This document shows, piece after piece, positions 15,948 to 56,632 of a DNA stretch of 64,000 nucleotides (positions are counted from its first letter, which is position 1; each line of letters opens with the position of its first letter). The notes below the pieces were generated by a model that saw only the letters and a program-made list of their open reading frames with translations, had not been told where the DNA came from and searched no databases. The DNA is from Macrostomum lignano (lineage: Eukaryota). The DNA lies in NCBI GenBank assembly GCA_002269645.1, contig NIVC01000487.1, forward strand, positions 376,893-440,892, in the 5' to 3' direction. The translations under genes and the position numbers were made by a program.

Positions 15948-16545
15948 ATTCACATGGCATGTTGATCTCGTACATGGCATGCAGATCTTGGACATGACAT
16001 GCTGATCTCGGACATGACATGCTGATCTAAGATATAACATTCTGATCTCGGACATGACATGCTGATCTAAGACATGAAATGCTGATCTCGGACATGGCAT
16101 GATGATCTCGGACATGACATACTGATCTCGGACATGACATGCTGATCTCGGACATGACATGCTGATTTCGGACATGACATGCTGATATCGGACATGACAT
16201 TCTGATCTCGGACATGACATGCTGATCTCGGACATGGTATGCTGATTTCGGACATGACATACTGATCTCGGACATGACATACTGATCTAAGACATGACAT
16301 GCTGATCTCGGACATGACATGCTGATCTCGGACATGACATACTGATCTAAGACATGGCATGCTGATCTCGGACATGACATGCTGATCTCGGACATGGCAT
16401 GCTGATTTCGGACATGACATACTGATCTCGGACATGACATACTGATCTAAGACATGGCATGCTGATCTCGGACATGACATGCTGATCTCGGACATGACAT
16501 GCTGATCTCGGACATGGCATGCTGATTTCGGACATGATATTCTGA
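15948..16545. repeat. 20-bp minisatellite (catgacatgctgatctcgga)
   Basis: Tandem units ending about 25 bp before the transporter ATG. Confidence 0.95.
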
Positions 16546-16571
16546 TCAATAAAGAACATGAAATTACAGCA

Positions 16572-17894
16572 ATGACTTTGTCTGCTAATAGAGAAGCTGA
16601 TGAATCTGAACGACTTCTCAATGAGCAGCGGCTGAGTTGGCGGCCTCTGCTATTCCTGCTGGGCATTGTCACTCTTGAGCGCTGCACCTACTACAACTAT
16701 ATGTCTATGGCCATCGGCGCTGGCGGCAGCGGCCAGCCGTACTGCGGAGCCCTGCTAGGCGAGAGCCCGACTGAACCGTTCGGCGCGACTTTACTGAGCC
16801 GCGTGCTGCCTCAGGGCCTGTCGTTCCTGCTCACCCTGGTTGGCGGCTACGTTGCCGACAATTTGATCGGATGCGCGAGAACTCTGGCTGCTGGCTGCTT
16901 CATGTCCACCCTGGCTGCTCTCATGCTGATCGGATTCGTGTTCTGTCCGGCCATGTGCCTGCCCGCTATGGTGACTGTTGGCAAGTTCGGCACCGCCTGC
17001 GGCTCCGGACTGATCCGGCCGTGTCTCCTGGTGCTCACCATTGAGTCTGGCAAACTGCTCGGCCTGTCGGTGCGGCGCGTCTGCCAGCTGCACTACGCGT
17101 GCGAGGCGTTGAGTCAGTTGCTAGGCAACCTGCTGGCCTTCGGATCGGACAGGCTGGCCTTCCCGCTTGGCTTCGTCACCTTGCCAACCAGCGTCATCAT
17201 GCTGCTGCTGGCCCTGCTGACTGCCGAGCGGCCCGGCTGGGACCCCAGCCAGTTCCAGCTGCCCGGCCTGCCAAGGTTTAAACGCGTCGTCGTGACAACG
17301 GCGCCCCTGATAGCCCTGTCCGCGAGCGTCCTGGCTGGCTATTTCTCGCTGAGCGTGTCGGATTTGAAAGGCGACATCCGGCGGATGGACGCGAACCAGT
17401 TCAGGTGGAGTCACAACCTGCTGCTGCTCTGCTACTCGGCTACTCTGCTTGCCGCGGTGGCCCTGCTCATGCTGGCCACGCGAGCGTCGGCTCTGGTGCG
17501 GCACCTGCCGGATGTCCGTATCGCCATTGGCGTCGCCGCCACCGCGCTGGGCCACCTGACGGCGCTGATCGTGTCCTCCAGCCAGCTGGCTGGCTCCTTC
17601 TGGTTGATCGCGGGCGGGCAGAATTTCTTGTACGCCATGGGCGAGGCGTTCGCCATCTCCACGGCTAACGAGGTGGCTTTCCGATCCGGATTCACCGTAT
17701 CCCGGGCCTTCATGGTCGGCCTGTTCATGGGCATCTGGGGCTCCGGCTATCTGTTTAACGAGTTTCTTGTGCACATTGCGACAGCCGTGATAGCGCACTG
17801 GATTGCTAGCGGCGCGATGCTTCTAACTAATGCTTATTTATTCTTCTTTGCGGTGCCGGCAATGGACTGGCTGCTGAGGGATGAGAGATCATGA
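16572..17894 (+). CDS. POT/PTR2 (SLC15 family) MFS oligopeptide transporter-like protein, intronless, 440 aa
   Basis: TM1 motif VTLERCTYY (ExxERFxYY-like), PTR2 signature GGYVADNLIGCARTL, GSGLIRPCL (GTGGIKP-like), TM10 GEAFAISTANEVAF; multiple hydrophobic helices; GC-rich codons. Confidence 0.85.
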   Translation: MTLSANREADESERLLNEQRLSWRPLLFLLGIVTLERCTYYNYMSMAIGAGGSGQPYCGALLGESPTEPFGATLLSRVLPQGLSFLLTLVGGYVADNLIGCARTLAAGCFMSTLAALMLIGFVFCPAMCLPAMVTVGKFGTACGSGLIRPCLLVLTIESGKLLGLSVRRVCQLHYACEALSQLLGNLLAFGSDRLAFPLGFVTLPTSVIMLLLALLTAERPGWDPSQFQLPGLPRFKRVVVTTAPLIALSASVLAGYFSLSVSDLKGDIRRMDANQFRWSHNLLLLCYSATLLAAVALLMLATRASALVRHLPDVRIAIGVAATALGHLTALIVSSSQLAGSFWLIAGGQNFLYAMGEAFAISTANEVAFRSGFTVSRAFMVGLFMGIWGSGYLFNEFLVHIATAVIAHWIASGAMLLTNAYLFFFAVPAMDWLLRDERS

Positions 17895-21511: not shown

Positions 21512-22250
21512 CATGCATTTGAGCAGTCATCACTATGAGCAATGCATTTGAGCAGTCATCACTATGAGCAATTCACTTGAGCAGTCATCACTATGAGCAA
21601 TTCACTTGAGCAGTCAACACTATGAGCAATTCACTTGAGCAGTCATCACTATGAGCAATGCATTTGAGCAGTCATCAATATGAGCAATGCATTTGAGCAG
21701 TCATCACTATGAGCAATTCAATTGAGCAGTCATCACTATGAGCTATGTATGAACTTAAGAAGTCATCACTTTGAGCTATGTATGCATTTGAACAGTCATC
21801 ACTATAAGCAATGCATTTGAGCAGTCATTACTATGAGCAATGCATTTGAGCAGTCATCACTATGAGTAATGCATTTGAGCAGTCATCACTATGAGCAATG
21901 CATTTGAGCAGTCATCACTATGAGCAATGCATTTGAGCAGTCATCACTATGAGCAATGCATTTGAACAGTCATCACTATGAGCAATGCATTTGAGCAGTC
22001 ATCACTATGAGCAATTCACTTGAGCAGTCATCACTATGAGCAATGTATGAACTTGAGCAGTCATCACTATGAGCTATGTATGAGCTTGAGCAGTCATCAC
22101 TATGAGCAATGTATGAACTTGAGCAGTCATCACTTATGAGCTATGTATGCATTTCAACAGACATCATTATGAGCAGTGCATTTGAGAAGTCATCACTATG
22201 AGCAAATGTATGCTAAATGCAAATGTATGCATTTGAATAGACATCACTAT
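21512..22250. repeat. 29-bp minisatellite (gcatttgagcagtcatcactatgagcaat), left part
   Basis: Tandem units interrupted by a retroelement; the array resumes at 25767. Confidence 0.95.
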
Positions 22251-23016
22251 GACGTACCGTGACGTACCACTCATGGCGTACCGTTCGAGCGTTCATCGTG
22301 GTACGGGATATTCGCCGTTTTTTCTTCTGCACGGCCACGAGATGGCCCTACCAGTTGATATAGGAATAGCCCGGCCCCGGAAGATTGAGCCATATTGCGA
22401 GGAAGTTCAGCACCTGCGAGAGATTCTCGAGGAAGCTCACCGAGAAGTACGGGAGAAGACAGCGTCCTATCAGAGAGTGCAGAAGGATTGGTATGACAGG
22501 AGGGTGAAAGGTCGAGAGTTCGCTCCCGGGGACAAGGTGTACGTGTACAATCCGGTACTGAAACCCGGTGCGAAGGCGAAGCTCCATTCACCGTGGTCGG
22601 GACCAGCCGTCGTCTTAGATCGGCTATCAGAAACTCGCTACAGGATCCGACAGGAAGGCCGACGGAAGCCGACAAAGGTGGTGCACTTCAACAATCTCTT
22701 GCCTCGCTACCGGCCGAAACCCGTTGACGACGCTAAAGGGCCCCGTCGAGCTCCCCGGATGGAGCGGCAGCCCGACCCTGCTGCGGAAGCGGAACCAGCG
22801 GGCGAGGAGCCGGAGGAATCTGAGGACGACGGTGAATACAAGTGGCAGAGACGGATGGAAGCGCCTGAGATGGAAGCACCGGAGATGGAAGCGCCTGAGA
22901 TGGGAGCGCTGGAGGAAGAAGCACCCGAGAGAGAGGAGACCGGCGATACAAGGGCGGGCCGGCCACTCCGGACTCGAAGGGTTCCGCAGCGCTACGGGGT
23001 GCCTCTGTACTACTAG
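22249..23016 (+). CDS. pol: Gypsy Pol fragment: C-terminal integrase with GPY/F-type domain (5'-truncated)
   Basis: LMAYRSSVHRGTGYSPFFLLHG, YDRR...FAPGDKVYV, KLHSPWSGPAVVLDRLSETRYRI, VVHFNNL, and terminal RPLRTRRVPQRY are typical of Gypsy integrase tails. The ATG comes from the host-repeat junction. Confidence 0.92.
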   Translation: MTYRDVPLMAYRSSVHRGTGYSPFFLLHGHEMALPVDIGIARPRKIEPYCEEVQHLREILEEAHREVREKTASYQRVQKDWYDRRVKGREFAPGDKVYVYNPVLKPGAKAKLHSPWSGPAVVLDRLSETRYRIRQEGRRKPTKVVHFNNLLPRYRPKPVDDAKGPRRAPRMERQPDPAAEAEPAGEEPEESEDDGEYKWQRRMEAPEMEAPEMEAPEMGALEEEAPEREETGDTRAGRPLRTRRVPQRYGVPLYY

Positions 23017-23026
23017 GGCGCCGGCC

Positions 23027-23451
23027 AGTTATCATCATTTTGCGTCATCAACCGCCTAGTTATCATCATTTTGCGTCATCAACCGCCTAGTTATCATCAT
23101 TTTGCGTCATCAACCGCCTAGTTATCATCATTTTGCGTCATCAACCGCCTAGTTACCGTCATTTTGCGTCATCCGCCGCCTAGTTATCATCATTTTGCGT
23201 CATCAACCGCCTAGTTACCGTCATTTTGCGTCATCCGCCGCCCAGTTATCATCATTTTGCGTCATCAACCGCCTATTTACCGTCATTTTGCGTCATCCGC
23301 CGCCCAGTTATCATCATTTTGCGTCATCAACCGCCTAGTTACCGTCATTTTGCGTCATCCGCCGCCCAGTTATCATCATTTTGCGTCATCAACCGCCTAG
23401 TTACCGTCATTTTGCGTCATCAACCGCCTAGTTACCGTCATTTTGCGTCAG
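23027..23451. repeat. 31-bp internal tandem array of the retroelement (gttatcatcattttgcgtcatcaaccgccta)
   Basis: 14 units, each with ttttgcgtca, starting about 10 bp after the pol stop. Confidence 0.95.
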
Positions 23452-23479: not shown

Positions 23480-24467
23480 GCAAGACCACCCGACCCACCC
23501 CGGACCAGAGCGAATCGGCGACTCCTCGAGGTCACAACGCGAATCATCCCAGTCTAAGCCGAACCCGGCCCATTGCAGGCTTTGCTTCCCGGGTCTAGAC
23601 CTTTACGCTGAGTTCGGTGTCGCACCGTCAGCATCTGAAGAGGAGCTGCGGAGAGCGTCTACGACGGCATCCAGATAAGTGCGGGCAGCAGGGAACTGAG
23701 AGCTTCCAGAAGCTCCAGCATGCCAGTGCAATCTTGCTGTGCCCGTTTCGGCGAGCGTTGTACGACCGGTTTGGTCAGGAGGCGGTCTCTAACCCGATTG
23801 AGTGCGCCCGGTATTTTGTGCCGCCAGACGGTGTGTCGGTGCCGGAGGAGTTCTGTATCACTATTGACGACGAGTCAGCCAGTCCGAGTGAGAACGGTGA
23901 AACGGATGCGAGCGAGCGGGCCGATGGGATGGAGGAGGATCTCTCAGATTACGAGGCTAGGTACGCGTACGGCTACACCCAGTCCGAGGAAGACGAGCTC
24001 CTGAACGACTCGATGGAGGATTTCGTCGTGGTGGAAGACGACCAGGGTGGTCAAGCAATGCCAGCAGCTGTGGCCGTGGTAGCCGGTTCCGGCGAGCGGG
24101 ACAGTAGACCCTGGGTCGGGGAGACCGCTCGAGAAAGAGTGCGACTGAGAAAGCGGCTTCAGCGCAACATTCCTGCATGGAGCTTCGGCAGCCACGTTCC
24201 GGGTCCTCACGAAGAGTGTCGAGCTTATGTCGCCGCGAGCGTCGGGACCACCGGCGAGAAATTACGGCTCTGCTTGAGCAGGTTCTGAAGTTCCTCAGCC
24301 GGGATGTTGGTAAAAAGTTTCGTGGTCACTCACAGCGCAAGTGGCGGCCAGATGCTTTCATCCGGAGCTCGAGGTTCATCACCGAGGTCGCGATTCCGGA
24401 GTTCCGACTGTTTAACGGCGGGCGTCTGCTGGGGCTTCTGCGGGGATTGGCATGGATCGCGGGGTAG
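23480..24467 (+). pseudogene. Retrotransposon-borne DnaJ/J-domain protein ORF, frameshifted
   Basis: One frame reads LDLYAEFGVAPSASEEELRRA (J helices I-II, 23595-23657). The next frame reads LRRHPDKCGQQGTESFQKLQHASAILLCPFRRALYDRFGQE (HPD motif, helices III-IV), then an acidic region. A probable second shift near 24230 leads into RRERRDHRREITALLEQVLKFL...AWIAG stop. Confidence 0.85.
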
Positions 24468-24838
24468 GGGGGTCGGTGCGGACGGGCTGGGAAGCGGTGT
24501 CTTCTGTTCTCTTTTCATCTTCATCTTATCATAGTCGTCCCCTTCGAACGCGAATGCGTGTCCCAGAAGCTCACCGGGGTAGTCCCCAAGATTCATTGAG
24601 ACGAGGGCTGACAGAGGAGTGGGAGTGCGTGTCCAACGCCTGCGGCCCCGCTTCCCGACGCCAGTAGCCCACTCTCCCGCGCCATTTGCCATTTGCGTCA
24701 TTATGTCATTCTCCCCTGCCAGTTGCGTCATGATCACAGCGCGGCACGTACAGTACGATTTTTTGCTGCTGCTGGAGTCATCCCGTTGTTTTTTCGTTTT
24801 TGTGTTTTTTCCCTTTTTGTTTTTTTTGCGGGGGAGGG

Positions 24839-25766
24839 TGTTGTGGCCTGCGCCACAATGACCTTCTCCTCAACTTTTTTTTGGTGCATGCGAACCGCCC
24901 GGTCTGCCGCCCTAGCCGGTTCTATCTGGTTTGAGCTGGTTCAGCCCGGTTTTGGTTTTGGGCAGCCGGCGTGTGCGCGGATTGGCTGGCTGGGCCGGCA
25001 GACCCTCTCTTTTCTACCCCCCCCCCCTCGTGGAGCCTTACCCAGCGCGTGTTTTGATTGGCTGGGCTGGGGTTGGGTGCTCGCGGGGTTCTGTTTTGTG
25101 TACTTGCGCTCAGGCCGGTTTGGCCCACTCCCCCATTTTTGGCATACTATTTATTAGCTGGCTTGGAGCCGGCCGGTGGCACGCCGCTTGGTTTTCGGTT
25201 AGGGCTACACCAGCTACTGAGTAGTGAAACTACTGTAAAAGTACAAAAACTGCACGAGCCCAGTGAACTCTCGAACAGCGCACCACCAGCGAATCCGTGC
25301 CACCCGCCGTCTCCGAGCTACCAGAACAGCTATTAAAATGGCTAAATAAACTGCGCCACGCCGTATGAGTCGGTTTGACCCCGCCCGGTGAGCTTAAATT
25401 ACGTTTGTTCGGGTCGCGTTCGCGTTTTTGGACTCTCTGCACGTGTCTTCCCTCCATCCTCGCCGCCTCATCGCTTCACCTACTCACCCCCTTGCTCACC
25501 TCCACTCTTCGATTGGCTTGGAGTGTCTGTACGCCCCAGCTAATCCATCACCTCGTATCTCTTGATTGGTCCGGAGTGTCTGTACGTAGTGTCGGGTCGC
25601 ATCTCTCCCTCTTCCCCTCGGAGTGGCCATCCGCCTCGAGGAGCGCCAGTCGTTCGTCCTCTGTCCATCCCTCCGCCGCGCGCCCGGGGCAGTCCCGCAC
25701 CGAACCCGCTACCCCGGGGAAACAAAACGACCGGGCTAGACGAGATCGCAGCCCGCGAGTACAACA
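24839..25766 (+). mobile_element. 3' LTR (928 bp)
   Basis: Starts TGTTGT directly after the PPT and ends ACAACA (6-bp inverted termini). ATTGG (CCAAT) boxes at 24981, 25057, 25512 and 25565; AATAAA at 25345. Confidence 0.85.
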
Positions 25767-25848
25767 TATGTATGCATTTAAACAGACATCACTATGAGCT
25801 ATGCATGCATTTGAACAGTCATCACTATGAGCAATGTACTTGAGAAGT
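25767..25848. repeat. 29-bp minisatellite, right remnant after the LTR
   Basis: tatgcatttaaacagacatcactatgagc... matches the 21512-22250 unit. Confidence 0.88.
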
Positions 25849-27693: not shown

Positions 27694-28512
27694 CCCCCGA
27701 GGAACATTGGCGGCCAGAAGGACAGCCAGCGGAGCGAGTCGCAGAAAGGCCAATTGAAACAGCGGACGCGAGCAAACACTAAGCTGAGCCGAGATCCAAA
27801 TTGGCTTTTAAAAATCGGTCTGGACGCAGCGGGAAACTGGCTTTCCACGCCAGCTCACCCGGGAATCAATTGCTAACCCGGGCGGAACAATTTGCTCCGC
27901 AAAGATTGCAGCTCCGCTCGGGCCAGTGATTGATTTATCAGCAAATAGGTCGTCAGGGAAATTTTAAACAATTTCGGTTATTAATAGTCGCAAAAACTTA
28001 TCTGGATCTGAAAGCACCGGCTTTAATGCGATATTGTTTCTCGTCAATGAGACTTCCCATTTATCCCATCTTCTCTCCCCGCCTATTTCTCATGCAGCAC
28101 CGAGAAATCTCCCAGGGGGAATCGGAGCGGATGAAGATGGGATGGGGGAAGCTGCGACACTTCCTCCACCCGGATGGGGCGCCTCATCGGCTGGATTATT
28201 GTTCTTAGAAAATCTATTTGAGCTTGCATCGCATTCGCGGAACTCGAATATCCGGCTCGCCCCCCCCCAGCCCACCTTAAGTCGGAGCTCTGGGGGACAG
28301 GGCGGAGATCAGCAAATTCAAGTGCAAAATAAGCTGCATCAGATTTGCCAGCCAATGGGCGGCTCAGCAGGGCGTCATTGGCCTCGGAGGCGAGCATTTC
28401 AGAGGGGCGCAGGCCCGGGCGGCATAGAAGACCAAAGAGCTGGGCAGGCTGCGGCGGCAGGCAGATCTGTGGAAGCCTCCCTTTCTTCCTGACACATTCA
28501 GCACTAGCCAGG

Positions 28513-30024
28513 ATGCCTAGCCAAACTCGTTCCTCTCTTATCTTGCTGCTGCTGCTCGTTGCCATGGCAACAGCAGAGGCACTCAGAAGGACGCCGCGGG
28601 AGCAACCGGTCATCACCGACGGTGTTGACAGCGGCGCAGAGTTCGAGGACGCCTCCTCCTCGCCGCCGCCGTCGCCGCAGCAGCCGCCGCCAGCGGACTC
28701 GGTGTACATCGTGATCCTGGACGCCGGATCGTCGGGCACGCGGGCCGTGGCCTACCAGTTCCGCGTGAAGCGCTCCAGCCTCATCGGCCTGGAGTACATC
28801 AGCGTCTACAAGCGCAAGAGCGACCAGGGCCTGTCGAACTTTGAGCGCAATCCGCCCCGCTGCCGCAAGATGCTGCAGGACCTGCTCGGCGAGGTGGCCG
28901 ACGGCATCCCTCGGGAGGTGCGCGGAAAAACCGTGGCAATCCTGCGCGCCACCGCCGGCTTCCGCCTGATGAAAGACAGCGCCAGGGCGAAGATCGCCAA
29001 AGAGGCCCGCGACGTCCTTCGCCGGTCGGCGTTCCGCATTCCAAACAAGGACGCGGAGCTGGTCCGGATGCTGAGCGGCAGCGATGAGGCCAAGTACTCT
29101 TGGATCGCCGTCAATTACCTGCTGGGCAATTTCCAGGAGGAGGGCGCCGCCACCAAGCCCATTGTTGAGATGGGCGGCGGCTCGCTTCAGGTGGCCTTCG
29201 AGGACCCGAAATTGGCGGCGGCAGCTGACGGCGAGGGCGGCGGCGCCACCTTCCGACTGCACGGCGGGCGCACGTACGCGGTGCACACGCACAGCTACCT
29301 GGGCCTCGGCTTCAGGGAGTCTGTGCTCCGCATCATCGGCTACCAGCAGCCCGATTCCGAAGAGAAGGCCTGGGCGCAAGTCTCTACGCCGTGTCTGGCG
29401 CCGAATCTAGCGCTAAATTTCAGCTTCGGCTCGACGAACATCGGCGTGATGGGTGAATCAAGCGTTGGCGGCGAGCGCCGTGTGAGCATCTGCTCGGGTC
29501 TGGCCAGACGCCTCGTCCAGCAGCTTGATGTTCACGACGAAGTCGAACTGGCCGGCGACGGCGCCAACTGGCCGCTGTACGGGATCGGCAGCATCTACTT
29601 CCTGGCGCAGTTCCTGCAGCAGAGACGCCTGGTGCCGGACATCCGGCCCGACGAGGCCACCTGCCAGGCTATGGTGAGCCGCGGCCTCCGCTGCGGCGCC
29701 TTCGCTGGCACCGTGGGCGACTTCACCGCGGCAGCCCGGCAAGTGTGCAGCGACCCGCCGAGGGCTTCCCGCTTTCCGCCCTACTACTGCATCAGCACCT
29801 CCGTGGTGTCCGCCCTGCTCAGCCAGGGCCTGCGCCTGCCCGAAACCGCCAGGATCACCGTGCTGGGCAACAACGACGCTCTCGGCTGGAGCCTCGGCCT
29901 TGGCCTTGAATTTCTCGCCTCGGCGGAGTCGGGCGGCTCACCGTCGGCCAGTCCGAGGTGCGGCGACGTGGTCAGCTTAGCGATGGTTGCCATGATGATG
30001 CAGCTGCTCAGGAGGTTGAGCTGA
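28513..30024 (+). CDS. GDA1/CD39-family NTPDase (apyrase; ENTPD5/6-like), intronless, 503 aa
   Basis: Signal peptide MPSQTRSSLILLLLLVAMATAEA. Apyrase conserved regions: ACR1 VILDAGSSGTR, ACR2 ATAGFRL, ACR3 SGSDEAKYSWIAVNYLLG, ACR4 EMGGGSLQVAF, ACR5 LGWSLG. The ATG at 28513 is preferred over the track start at 28345. Confidence 0.93.
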   Translation: MPSQTRSSLILLLLLVAMATAEALRRTPREQPVITDGVDSGAEFEDASSSPPPSPQQPPPADSVYIVILDAGSSGTRAVAYQFRVKRSSLIGLEYISVYKRKSDQGLSNFERNPPRCRKMLQDLLGEVADGIPREVRGKTVAILRATAGFRLMKDSARAKIAKEARDVLRRSAFRIPNKDAELVRMLSGSDEAKYSWIAVNYLLGNFQEEGAATKPIVEMGGGSLQVAFEDPKLAAAADGEGGGATFRLHGGRTYAVHTHSYLGLGFRESVLRIIGYQQPDSEEKAWAQVSTPCLAPNLALNFSFGSTNIGVMGESSVGGERRVSICSGLARRLVQQLDVHDEVELAGDGANWPLYGIGSIYFLAQFLQQRRLVPDIRPDEATCQAMVSRGLRCGAFAGTVGDFTAAARQVCSDPPRASRFPPYYCISTSVVSALLSQGLRLPETARITVLGNNDALGWSLGLGLEFLASAESGGSPSASPRCGDVVSLAMVAMMMQLLRRLS

Positions 30025-48938: not shown

Positions 48939-48971
48939 CAAGTCCCCTACAGTTAAAATTATGGCTCGCAC

Positions 48972-49697
48972 CTGATTGCACAGTGTATCGTGCACCCGGA
49001 ATTTCCTAGTATGATCGGCTCCAAGCACCCGGTGCCAGTACACGTGCACATCAATGCCCAGCTTAGCCAACGGATTACAATTAGGCGAGGCGAATGCGTC
49101 AAAGTCGTTAGTTGAAATCTTCGTACACCGGTTGCCGCGCAACAACTCGTTATGAAAGAAGACGCAAACCTCGGGCACGCAGTAGAATCCAGCCAAGATT
49201 AATGCGCCTAGAAAGTTGTCGCGGCCATCGCTGCGGCATTCAATAATAGGAATCTGGGAGCCAGTGACAATAACCGGCTTGCCGAGATTCTCAAGCAGGA
49301 AGGACAGAGCCGAGGCTGTATAGCACATCGTGTCCGTGCCGTGCAGTATGACAAAGCCGTCAAAGAAGTCGTACTCAAGGCCAATATCGGCCGCTATGCG
49401 CAGGTGATCGTCCATGGTCATGTCGGACGAGTCTAGCAGCGGCTCGTACTCGTAGATGACGTACAACAGGGTCCGGTTGCCAACGCTAGTGGGCAGAGCG
49501 AATGGCAGGTCAACGGCGCCCAGACTGGTGTCAGTGGCGATCTCCCAATCGTCCTCGGTCATTAGGGAGCGCAGGCATTGGTTATCGTGCAATACCTTTG
49601 TGTGGCGAATAGCATCTCCCAGGTAATTGGCTACGGGTACGTAGGCGCCGTTCTCTGATTTCATACCGATTGTGCCGCCAGTGTACAGTACCAGGAC
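48972..49697 (-). CDS. ASPG: ASPG exon 2: asparaginase N-terminal catalytic domain
   Basis: ctctcag|GTC; VLVLYTGGTIGM, DSSDMT, GFVILHGTDTMCYTASALSF, KPVIVTGSQIP, RGNRCTKIS; 726 bp; donor cag|gtgcga. Confidence 0.96.
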
Positions 49698-49980
49698 CTG
49701 AGAGTAGAAGTTGAATAACAAATAGCCTTATATTACTTGATGATTTTCGCCCGGCGCTCCTACTGAATAGTAGCAAGATAAGAATGTGAAGCGAATCTTT
49801 ATAGTGTACACAAAAACAGTTGCGCAATTTTAGGTAAACTAGCAATCATCGCCCCACGTTAGGGAGGCAACAGAGAGAGGAATTATATTTTTCGAATAAA
49901 CTATAAATGTAGCATTTGACCTTTCACAGTCACAAAGTTAGTTTCTGAAGAAAAACATCTTTTTAAAGCAAAAACATGAA

Positions 49981-55045: not shown

Positions 55046-56632
55046 TCACACAATGGACATTGGTGAAAAGTAGGCAACGCTCCCACTAGATGAGGCAGAT
55101 GCTGCTCCAGATGATGGCGCTAGCAGCTGCAGCTGGGGCTGCGGCGGCGGCGGCGGCGGCGGCGGTACGGGAGTATGGTGAAGCCGCCGCTGCCACTGCC
55201 TGCCGCTGTCTCTAGAGCCGGACGCCCAGATCTCTGGGATCGCCTGATCGCAGCTGCAATCTTCATCCCAGTGCTGTGACTGGCGAGCGCCGCCGCCAAA
55301 AACGACAGCAACTTCGTCGCCCGTCGAGTCAACTCGCTGATGTCGGGCCGTAGCGGACAGCAGAGGAGGCGGCGGCGGTGGCGGCAGCGGCGGCTGTGAA
55401 AACGATTCCCGCTGCCGATCCAGGTGCCTTCGACTTCGGCCGCTGCTTTCATCTCCTCGGTGCAGCCAGAAGAAGCAACAGCCGCGCTGCCTGTGGCAGC
55501 ATCGGCAGAGACGCAGTGGCAGCCGGCCGAAGTCGCCATCGAATATCAGCAGCGCCAGCGGCTCAACGGCCGCCCTGGAGAAGCCGAGAATGGTGAGAAA
55601 CTTGTACAGCTCGACGGTGACACGGTACTGCGGGTCCATCAGGATCAGGGCGTACAGCGGATACCAGCAGATGAGATGCAGACACCACAGCCCGGCCAGC
55701 ACCCTCTGCCGGTTGTACTTCGCCGATGCCAGCTGTCCGAGGCGCCTGGCGAAGCTCTCAACCGGCTGATCGGGCGGCTGGCTGGCGTCGCCGGCGCGGG
55801 CCTTGTAGAAGGCCAGCTTGGCGCCGATGGTGCGTCCGATGGTTCGGCGGAACACGGCCAGATAGTAGGCGGCCGCCATCAGCGCCAGGGACACGATCAG
55901 CACCCACATGGTGTACACAACGTAGTTCTTCACCTGGCCGTACACGAACAGGCATTTCTCGCCGCTCCTGCTGCTACTGGACGAGCGGGCGCCGGCGCCG
56001 GCGCCAACCACGCCGCGGCCAGTTGAAGCTTCGAAATTGGCACCGATGAGGGTTGGGCCGAGGTGCAGGATGGCGCTGCCAGTGTACACCAGCGACACGC
56101 CAAATAACACGCAGCAGACGGAGCCCTCCGGTTGGCGGCCCTCGGACGCCTGCCGACTATCAAAGAAGTACACCTCGCAGCAGGCCATGGCGACCAGATT
56201 GAAGGCCGCCGTTGTCATCAGCACGATGTAGCTGGTGCCCAGCGAGTTGCAAGCGCTGCTGGACACGCCGCCGCCGTCAGAGACGAGGCCCCGGCCGAAC
56301 GGCAGGCAGTAGGCGGACATCGCCAGGTTGAGCAGCGCTGAGTGCCCTACGAACGCCGAGGAGAGTCGCCGGGTGCGCGGCCGGACCAGCAGGGAGGCCA
56401 TCAGCAGCGAGTTGGCGATGAGCCCGACTCCGGCGATGGCGAACATGGCGGCCTGCTCGAAGGCCTCGTGCAGCGAGTCGTCCTCGCCGTGCTGGTGCTC
56501 GTCCGGCCAGCCGGTGTCGCCCGGACCGGTCTGCATGAGCTGCCTTCGCGACCGGGTTGGCTGGGACTGCACGGGCGTGAGGATCTGGAGGGTCGGTGGA
56601 TGGCTTTCGTTAGTGTCTAATGATGGCTGCAT
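55046..56632 (-). CDS. Class A (rhodopsin-like) orphan GPCR, intronless, 528 aa
   Basis: Seven hydrophobic segments; TM1 GVGLIAN, TM3 Cys (ACNSLG), ECL2 Cys (EKCLF), TM6 ICWYP; N-glycosylation site NES; long low-complexity C-tail. Loose resemblance to SREB-type receptors (SAYCLPF, AAFNL). Confidence 0.85.
   Translation of the reverse strand: MQPSLDTNESHPPTLQILTPVQSQPTRSRRQLMQTGPGDTGWPDEHQHGEDDSLHEAFEQAAMFAIAGVGLIANSLLMASLLVRPRTRRLSSAFVGHSALLNLAMSAYCLPFGRGLVSDGGGVSSSACNSLGTSYIVLMTTAAFNLVAMACCEVYFFDSRQASEGRQPEGSVCCVLFGVSLVYTGSAILHLGPTLIGANFEASTGRGVVGAGAGARSSSSSRSGEKCLFVYGQVKNYVVYTMWVLIVSLALMAAAYYLAVFRRTIGRTIGAKLAFYKARAGDASQPPDQPVESFARRLGQLASAKYNRQRVLAGLWCLHLICWYPLYALILMDPQYRVTVELYKFLTILGFSRAAVEPLALLIFDGDFGRLPLRLCRCCHRQRGCCFFWLHRGDESSGRSRRHLDRQRESFSQPPLPPPPPPPLLSATARHQRVDSTGDEVAVVFGGGARQSQHWDEDCSCDQAIPEIWASGSRDSGRQWQRRLHHTPVPPPPPPPPQPQLQLLAPSSGAASASSSGSVAYFSPMSIV

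Follow-up and report, generated by a model that had tools for sequence, protein, structure and literature searches.

Can an LTR retrotransposon of an animal own a gene for a J-domain protein, and what would such a gene do for the element? The question is raised by a stretch of 64,000 nucleotides of the Macrostomum lignano genome (hereafter the window), in which an initial annotation had noted a split J-domain in the env position of a Gypsy element. To our knowledge, animal LTR retrotransposons have few genes other than gag, pol and, in some cases, env. Our results confirm that the J-domain ORF (ORF3) is a family trait: many related elements have an intact version in the corresponding place, which matches the DnaJ profile above its cut-off and is under purifying selection. 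ORF3 is almost certainly an accessory gene that a single Ty3/Gypsy clade has had for a long time; the gene family is real and apparently undescribed.

The window copy and its subfamily

The copy in the window is itself a dead pseudogene (Table 1). It matches a fuller sibling on contig C3200 from 22268 onward (98%), while the 5' LTR, gag, PR, RT, RH and the IN core are all missing. Among the PPT and LTR features it retains the PPT and the 3' LTR only, and no second LTR was found within the 64-kb window, nor were any tRNA genes. The end of the integrase ORF and the positions of the PPT and the LTR had been read correctly in the initial annotation, the integrase having a C-terminal PF22938 match and the LTR ends being backed by 4-bp target-site duplications (TSDs) at 12 of 15 solo LTRs of the same subfamily, W. 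Forty genomic relatives of this LTR were scored, the 39 others being 83-94% alike over the main segment.

Table 1. Features of the element copy and its insertion site in the window
Feature	Position	Strand	Evidence
Host 29-bp tandem array, insertion site of the element	21513..22205	+	related repeats again at 25767-25836
Integrase C-terminal part, pol remnant	22268..23016	+	PF22938, 34.7 bits
31-bp tandem array, GCGTCA-rich, between pol and ORF3	23027..23450	+	13.7 copies
Predicted splice acceptor AG	23577..23578	+	19 nt 5' of first conserved J codon; predicted
Broken ORF3: J-domain, acidic linker, helical C-domain	23595..24467	+	translations; tblastn
J-domain, HPD at 23668-23676	23598..23775	+	PF00226 positions 27-63, 21.9 bits on window piece
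Five-helix C-terminal domain and basic loop, specific to the ORF3 family	24110..24464	+	alignment; AlphaFold2 model of family-A domain
Polypurine tract (PPT)	24830..24838	+	direct reading; same run precedes family A 3' LTR
3' LTR, 928 bp, TG...CA	24839..25766	+	genomic relatives; TSDs at solo copies
ATG (25365) and GTGAG donor (25388) inside LTR	25365..25392	+	ATG 23 nt 5' of donor; predicted

The ORF itself needed more correction. Both J-domain peptides quoted at first, with the HPD, are present, and so are the acidic linker and the basic helical tail. The ORF had been started at 23480, but homology to intact copies begins at about 23580-23595, and the window copy has no in-frame ATG 3' of the predicted acceptor at 23578. 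A single frameshift at about 23658 with a loss of some 14 nt had been proposed; the break near 23657 does correspond to a 14-base gap against sibling copies in the alignment, but the frame is broken at two further points, ~24165 and ~24225. In tblastn, the family-A ORF matches the window in pieces that lie in different frames and are 49-81% identical. The longest window piece falls short of the curated PF00226 cut-off of 27.8 bits, which the intact sister ORFs pass.

Subfamily W is old. LTR matches only were obtained from 17 of the 19 LTR loci fetched, and ORF3 is wholly or partly deleted in the three fuller copies examined (contigs C3200, C2269 and C24). Many of the 4-bp target duplications of W solo LTRs end in G, adjoining the TG of the LTR, perhaps a target preference. 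Elsewhere in the window, a hydrophobic ORF of 462 aa (16506-17894, +) is membrane-transporter-like and had no Pfam match at E<=0.1, and three long non-repetitive ORFs are probable host genes (28333-30021, +; 48939-49727, -; 55049-56632, -), the second asparaginase-like and the third receptor-like by eye.

ORF3 in a clade of Ty3/Gypsy elements

The genome searched comprises 764 Mb in 5269 contigs. Genome-wide copy counts are lower bounds from searches and are possibly also inflated, because the M. lignano assembly is redundant (PMC12801592, in excerpt). A DNA search revealed a sister family, A, with about 73% identity to the window ORF, in which 13 of 20 loci have an open HPD frame from the J-domain to the C-terminus; its intact ORF3 scores 47.9 bits over PF00226 positions 1-63. 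A protein search with the ORF gave 154 matches in the genome, 40 of which were fetched: 26 have pol upstream of the J match, 4 are ORF3 pieces without pol context and 10 are host DNAJ genes. LTR pairs 96.7-100% alike flank 17 of those 26. The plan LTR-gag-pol-ORF3-LTR, of about 8.4-9 kb, is common to families B, C, D, E and F, and a 4-bp TSD was present at 8 of 9 full-length copies checked. Full elements of the related families have paired TG...CA LTRs, a PBS, which we take to be of the tRNA-Lys type, a PPT and a TSD. The family-A pol order by Pfam, PR-RT-RH-IN, is that of Ty3/Gypsy, its best PDB match is Ty3 RT (E 4.9e-90), and its RT is 100% identical to a named M. lignano protein. The long LTRs and the PBS suggest possible membership in the Gmr1/Osvaldo cluster; excerpts of PMC12801592 give 40 Gmr1/Osvaldo families for M. 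lignano. Rfam had no match in four element loci. At one locus (L084:2144-5440, contig C506; protein P0006), PR-RT-RH and the greater part of a family-E ORF3 have been joined in frame through an internal deletion, and the product is an NCBI-annotated protein.

Integrases are only about 50% identical between ORF3-carrying families. An integrase search added family G, whose ORF3 of 558 aa has a J-like domain without HPD, the C-domain and a TatD-like tail. It has 10 full-length open frames (for example L127:6020-7693, contig C254) and is young, with LTR pairs at 99.4-99.9%. Family H, from the same search, has the TatD-like tail only, and 10 of 17 further loci have no ORF3. No ORF3 is detectable in family I, which is nested in the ORF3 clade and has LTR matches of 98.7-98.9%; frames of 207-247 aa occupy the ORF3 position there (L131 and L138; contigs C23 and C4067), the one of 247 aa having no Pfam match.

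ORF3 is under purifying selection between subfamilies, although the best local identity between the proteins of six families is only 23-36%. Nei-Gojobori dN/dS values well under 1 were obtained for five pairs (0.16 A/window, 0.24 B1/B2, 0.15 B1/B3, 0.15 C/C2 and 0.08 D/D2), a sixth, F/F2, being saturated and synonymous sites being near saturation in most pairs. In the same analysis pol gave 0.05-0.24, and within ORF3 the J-domain gave 0.08-0.11 and the C-domain 0.09-0.22. Raw ORF3 pN/pS without alignment filter was 0.24-0.46, with third positions differing most. In the A/window pair, the LTR and the 3' UTR do not align at all. Within family A, the 14 variant codons comprise 6 synonymous and 8 non-synonymous ones, as expected for recent copies. 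In the C/C2 pair (C2: L075, contig C94) ORF3 dS is 1.33 and pol dS 0.18, and the ORF3 module has probably been swapped by recombination. As for the clade, the results speak against the other origins that had been considered for the window ORF, namely a one-off capture, an assembly chimera, or copies that are all degenerate and neutrally evolving.

The nine rows with ORF3 all fall into a single clade of the RT+RH tree (100/99), together with the ORF3-less I, I2 and K and an interrupted F-like copy, and the outgroup families O, M and P have no ORF3. Strict monophyly of the ORF3-bearing rows was rejected (p-AU 3e-7), as I, I2, K and the interrupted F-like copy nest inside. We read this nesting as loss, and the simplest reading of the tree would be one gain of ORF3 followed by losses. 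With public proteins added, the RT clade holds (SH-aLRT 98) and gains two JGI Pol proteins, cnidarian RTs remaining outside. The phylogeny suggested at the outset also sets the element J-domains apart: a branch (97/93) separates 12 of them from 25 generic and 5 host DnaJ, the host side being a sample of five paralogues, and a private J motif occurs in 12 of 12 element rows and in 0 of 30 others. RT and ORF3 trees agree for close pairs, for which alone co-divergence is shown, and deep ORF3 branching is uncertain.

Homologues also exist outside the assembly. A C-domain profile searched against 1.84 billion representatives gave 10 hits, of which 8 are of ORF3 type (two named M. lignano models and six others) and 2 are weak and repeat-like. 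For one of the proteins, P0004, identity to the sequences scored in the M. lignano genome does not exceed 43%. Two JGI proteins, P0008 (ORF3) and P0071 (Pol), are both B-like and stem from contigs of equal length (7008), and we infer that they lie on one contig; metagenome scans gave nothing for P0008 and, for P0071, 4 distant pol loci, 0 with ORF3. Word-based protein searches under-sample such relatives: with family A they gave generic DnaJ only, and with an ORF3 alignment nothing more than generic DnaJ, P0009 and the family-F cluster. In UniRef some copies are labelled 'J domain-containing protein', with the element not noted. The literature searched held no precedent for an LTR retrotransposon with a J-domain gene, although the ORF may be mentioned in Biryukov et al. 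2020, Repbase, Dfam or GyDB, which lie outside that scope. The main text of PMC12801592 has no mention of DnaJ, Hsp40, J-domain, ORF or chaperone.

The ORF3 protein and its predicted expression

All seven HPD-bearing ORFs scanned (A, B, B2, C, D2, E and F) pass PF00226, with 47.9-65.3 bits. All 10 rows of the J alignment, which were chosen as HPD-bearing, have HPD without variation. Families A, B, C, D2, E and F retain it, as do five homologues outside the genome; it is absent in families G and D, G scoring 18.3 bits. In the AlphaFold2 models the J-domain (residues 1-90) has a pLDDT of 85-94 and superposes on solved J-domains at about 1-2 A, the acidic linker (residues 100-173) is disordered, and the five-helix domain with its basic loop, modelled for family A, reaches a pLDDT of 90.4. 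No full-length ORF3 is without the C-domain, not even that of G, which has no HPD (probability 96.4 in hhalign, 230 columns), and the domain is basic, with 18-27 K+R in full-length HPD-bearing rows. Foldseek searches of PDB and BFVD gave no match to its fold at E<=0.001; the best structural match (Z 8.8, rmsd 3.0, 88 aligned) is in a range common for helical bundles. The ESM Atlas offered no usable match for the C-domain and, for P0005, only generic J clusters under 0.9. The C-domain may be a new interaction fold. No transmembrane segment was found in 12 ORFs (highest 19-residue Kyte-Doolittle values 0.81-1.56), and the ORF3s scanned matched no env family in Pfam. PF01556 and PF00684 are absent from every ORF3 scanned, which sets ORF3 apart from class A/B DnaJ (Hsp40) with its G/F region, zinc finger and DnaJ C-terminal domain. 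LxCxE occurs in only 1 of 12 ORFs.

ORF3 is modular. Of 12 linkers, 9 contain a SIM-like motif where shuffled sequences would give 1.06, by a pattern defined after the sequences had been seen. The SIM consensus, like the details of VANC-type factors given below, is general background. The linkers without the motif are those of G and of the two chromodomain rows, F and P0009. In family F (L065:2023-3006, contig C245) the chromodomain lies in the ORF3 linker, where others have the SIM-like motif. On PF00385 (cut-off 25.1) F reaches 47.7 bits and P0009 48.7 bits, and the best PDB matches are Swi6/HP1. Chromodomains have defined aromatic-cage positions; the third, three residues C-terminal to the conserved W, is V in F against Y in Swi6, and L in P0009, so methyl-lysine binding by these domains is uncertain. 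A TatD-like tail occurs in D2, G and H. It gave 23.3 and 31.5 bits on PF01026 (cut-off 27), H alone passing, and the metal ligands are replaced in G and H (the His of the IIH motif and the Glu/Asp of the ETD motif), but the tail is constrained (pN/pS 0.34 for H/D2).

ORF3 is probably expressed from an env-style spliced subgenomic RNA in which a short exon of the 5' LTR would be joined to an acceptor immediately before the J-domain, judging from the signals in the DNA. A GTRAG donor is present at LTR position 481-680 in 8 of 8 families tested, some with further donors. In 8 of 8 families YAG lies 3-19 nt 5' of the first J codon, and in B, B2, C, D, E and F the distance is 3-6 nt (chance of YAG within 6 nt about 0.17); the acceptor position in family A is the same as in W. 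Neither W nor D has an ATG after the acceptor, and there the LTR exon would supply or create the start in the needed phase. The ATG of W precedes the LTR donor by 23 nt, in the needed phase 2, and that of A by 26 nt, also in phase 2; in D the predicted junction would itself create a start codon. The family-F ORF is an exact match to an NCBI M. lignano gene model, which starts at the ATG of the splice-signal analysis. Contigs of four sequencing runs, taken by guess as RNA, span the ORF3 of family A and continue across the predicted acceptor without a break; the predicted LTR-acceptor junction is not among the 9 joints listed from these contigs, which drop rare forms, and repeats were skipped. 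A start codon provided by SL trans-splicing was rejected for its phase misfit in W and D.

The LTRs of family A hold a sequence of another kind. In the element at L106 (L106:745-787, contig C958), each LTR has a TATA/AATAAA-like box and, some 30 nt downstream of it, a copy of the host's spliced leader. It matches the SL RNA genes at 43 of 45 bases, and its terminal ATG is lost because the last two bases differ. From 47 SL pattern matches 20 loci were fetched, comprising 11 family-A LTRs, 5 SL RNA genes, 3 other copies and 1 not printed. Run depth piles up at the family-A copy (9,000-47,000), which may be SL mimicry or the fixed relic of a trans-spliced template. The LTRs of W, B, B2, C, D, E, F and G have no SL copy. 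Isolated genomic SL copies outside SL RNA genes and LTRs (L107, L113 and L120) perhaps derive from retroposed mRNAs. In the 620 nt 5' of ORF3, GCGTCA occurs 14 times in W, 11 in A, 4 in C and 0-1 in 8 other rows; these repeats may be bZIP sites of an internal enhancer. The tandem arrays between pol and ORF3 in the window and in family A (L106:6250-6490) have different units, and both repeat GCGTCA.

Proposed function and comparison with known systems

Several functions may be considered for ORF3. In the one that we prefer, the spliced mRNA would give a soluble adaptor whose J-domain, where HPD is kept, stimulates host Hsp70. This recruitment and stimulation of Hsp70 by HPD-bearing ORF3 is likely, because it follows established J-protein biology. 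The constant five-helix domain and the lineage-specific modules would choose the client, and a nuclear client would be the most likely because the modules seen are of nuclear or nucleic-acid types. It could be a complex on the element's own DNA or RNA, either a SUMO/heterochromatin silencing complex that is dismantled or an integration complex that is remodelled. Overall, the best explanation is a soluble adaptor through which Hsp70 would reach a nuclear client; we give it slightly less than an even chance, its client step being what we infer. The J-domain of polyomavirus T antigen acts on Rb-E2F, and the action proposed for ORF3 is likened to it. Counter-silencing in particular would be a possible role, though distinctly less probable. 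Equally tentative is the wider picture of a modular counter-silencing factor, in which the J-domain, the helical domain and swappable SUMO, heterochromatin or nucleic-acid modules would strip repressive complexes and one family would mimic the host spliced leader. On the host side, TE silencing does involve J-domain proteins that work together with HSP70 and chromatin readers (SILENZIO; PMC8616336, in excerpt). Against an essential role of ORF3, G spread without HPD and I without ORF3, and help in trans is possible.

The main rival is the model of the initial annotation, a cytoplasmic co-chaperone that brings Hsp70 to Gag, RT or the ribonucleoprotein for assembly, uncoating or RT activation. 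The retention of HPD across most families and the outside homologues fits such a protein, the basic C-domain could bind RNA, and hepadnaviral RT depends on Hsp40/Hsp70. However, it leaves the chromodomain, the SIM-like motif and the TatD-like tail unexplained, the genome already has host DNAJ genes, and the HPD-less G and the ORF3-less I both spread recently. We consider it possible for these elements, but less probable than the adaptor with a nuclear client. A second rival, which we regard as improbable, places the function in the five-helix domain as a nucleic-acid or chromatin tether, for example in integration-site choice or RNA export, with the J-domain optional. The C-domain is indeed in every full-length ORF3 and selected too, and chromodomains guide integration in chromoviruses, but the J-domain is as constrained or more, and HPD does not vary among the rows chosen as HPD-bearing.

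A heat-stress accessory, protecting the element in heat-induced transposition bursts, is very unlikely. Some M. lignano LTR families are strongly heat-induced via HSEs, according to excerpts of PMC12801592, but 10 LTR sequences from ORF3 families contain 0 canonical HSE, and the LTRs of the heat-induced Gmr1/Osvaldo family, of about 340 bp, are unlike those of the ORF3 families. Three ORF3-related gene ids are absent from the differential-expression table, which uses another id scheme, so that their absence carries no weight. Finally, a passenger host DNAJ exon without function, or an assembly chimera, would suit the decay of the window copy and its subfamily and the 6 to 8 codons of family A, but for the clade it is refuted by dN/dS and has next to no chance against purifying selection, open frames at 23-36% identity, a separate J clade and outside homologues.

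ORF3 is an accessory gene under selection, with a recognisable putative activity, Hsp70 recruitment, and with swappable modules that would serve in targeting. It offers a direct route to what limits retrotransposition, be it the folding of element proteins or host silencing. The host animal is rich in stem cells and tractable for transgenesis, and natural families with HPD, without HPD and without ORF3 constitute built-in controls.

Among known systems, the env-bearing Ty3/Gypsy elements (errantiviruses; gypsy, ZAM, Osvaldo), in which env-style spliced expression occurs, likewise have a third ORF between pol and the 3' LTR. The likeness would extend to the predicted spliced subgenomic RNA and, in some ORF3 families, to a start codon supplied or made by the LTR exon. 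However, ORF3 has no transmembrane segment or env Pfam match, and a J-domain and a novel helical domain stand in their place. Chromoviruses are also Ty3/Gypsy elements with a chromodomain, theirs being at the integrase C-terminus, whereas that of family F and P0009 is in the ORF3 linker. Class C (type III) J-proteins such as SILENZIO (PMC8616336, in excerpt) resemble ORF3 in that their J-domain is not accompanied by a zinc finger, a DnaJ C-terminal domain or a G/F-rich region, and in that source they are likewise linked to chromatin readers. In contrast to these host proteins, ORF3 is transposon-encoded and forms a separate J clade with a private motif. VANC-type anti-silencing factors, the subject of titles in the reference list of PMC8616336, are, like ORF3, selected accessory genes, and counter-silencing is proposed for both. 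They differ in belonging to plant DNA transposons without J-domains, and the role of ORF3 is putative. Polyomavirus large T antigen, which carries a J-domain, differs in its helicase and LxCxE, the latter found in a single ORF3, and ORF3 is a separate ORF of a retroelement; nevertheless both give a mobile element its own J-domain, followed by an acidic region and by client-binding parts.
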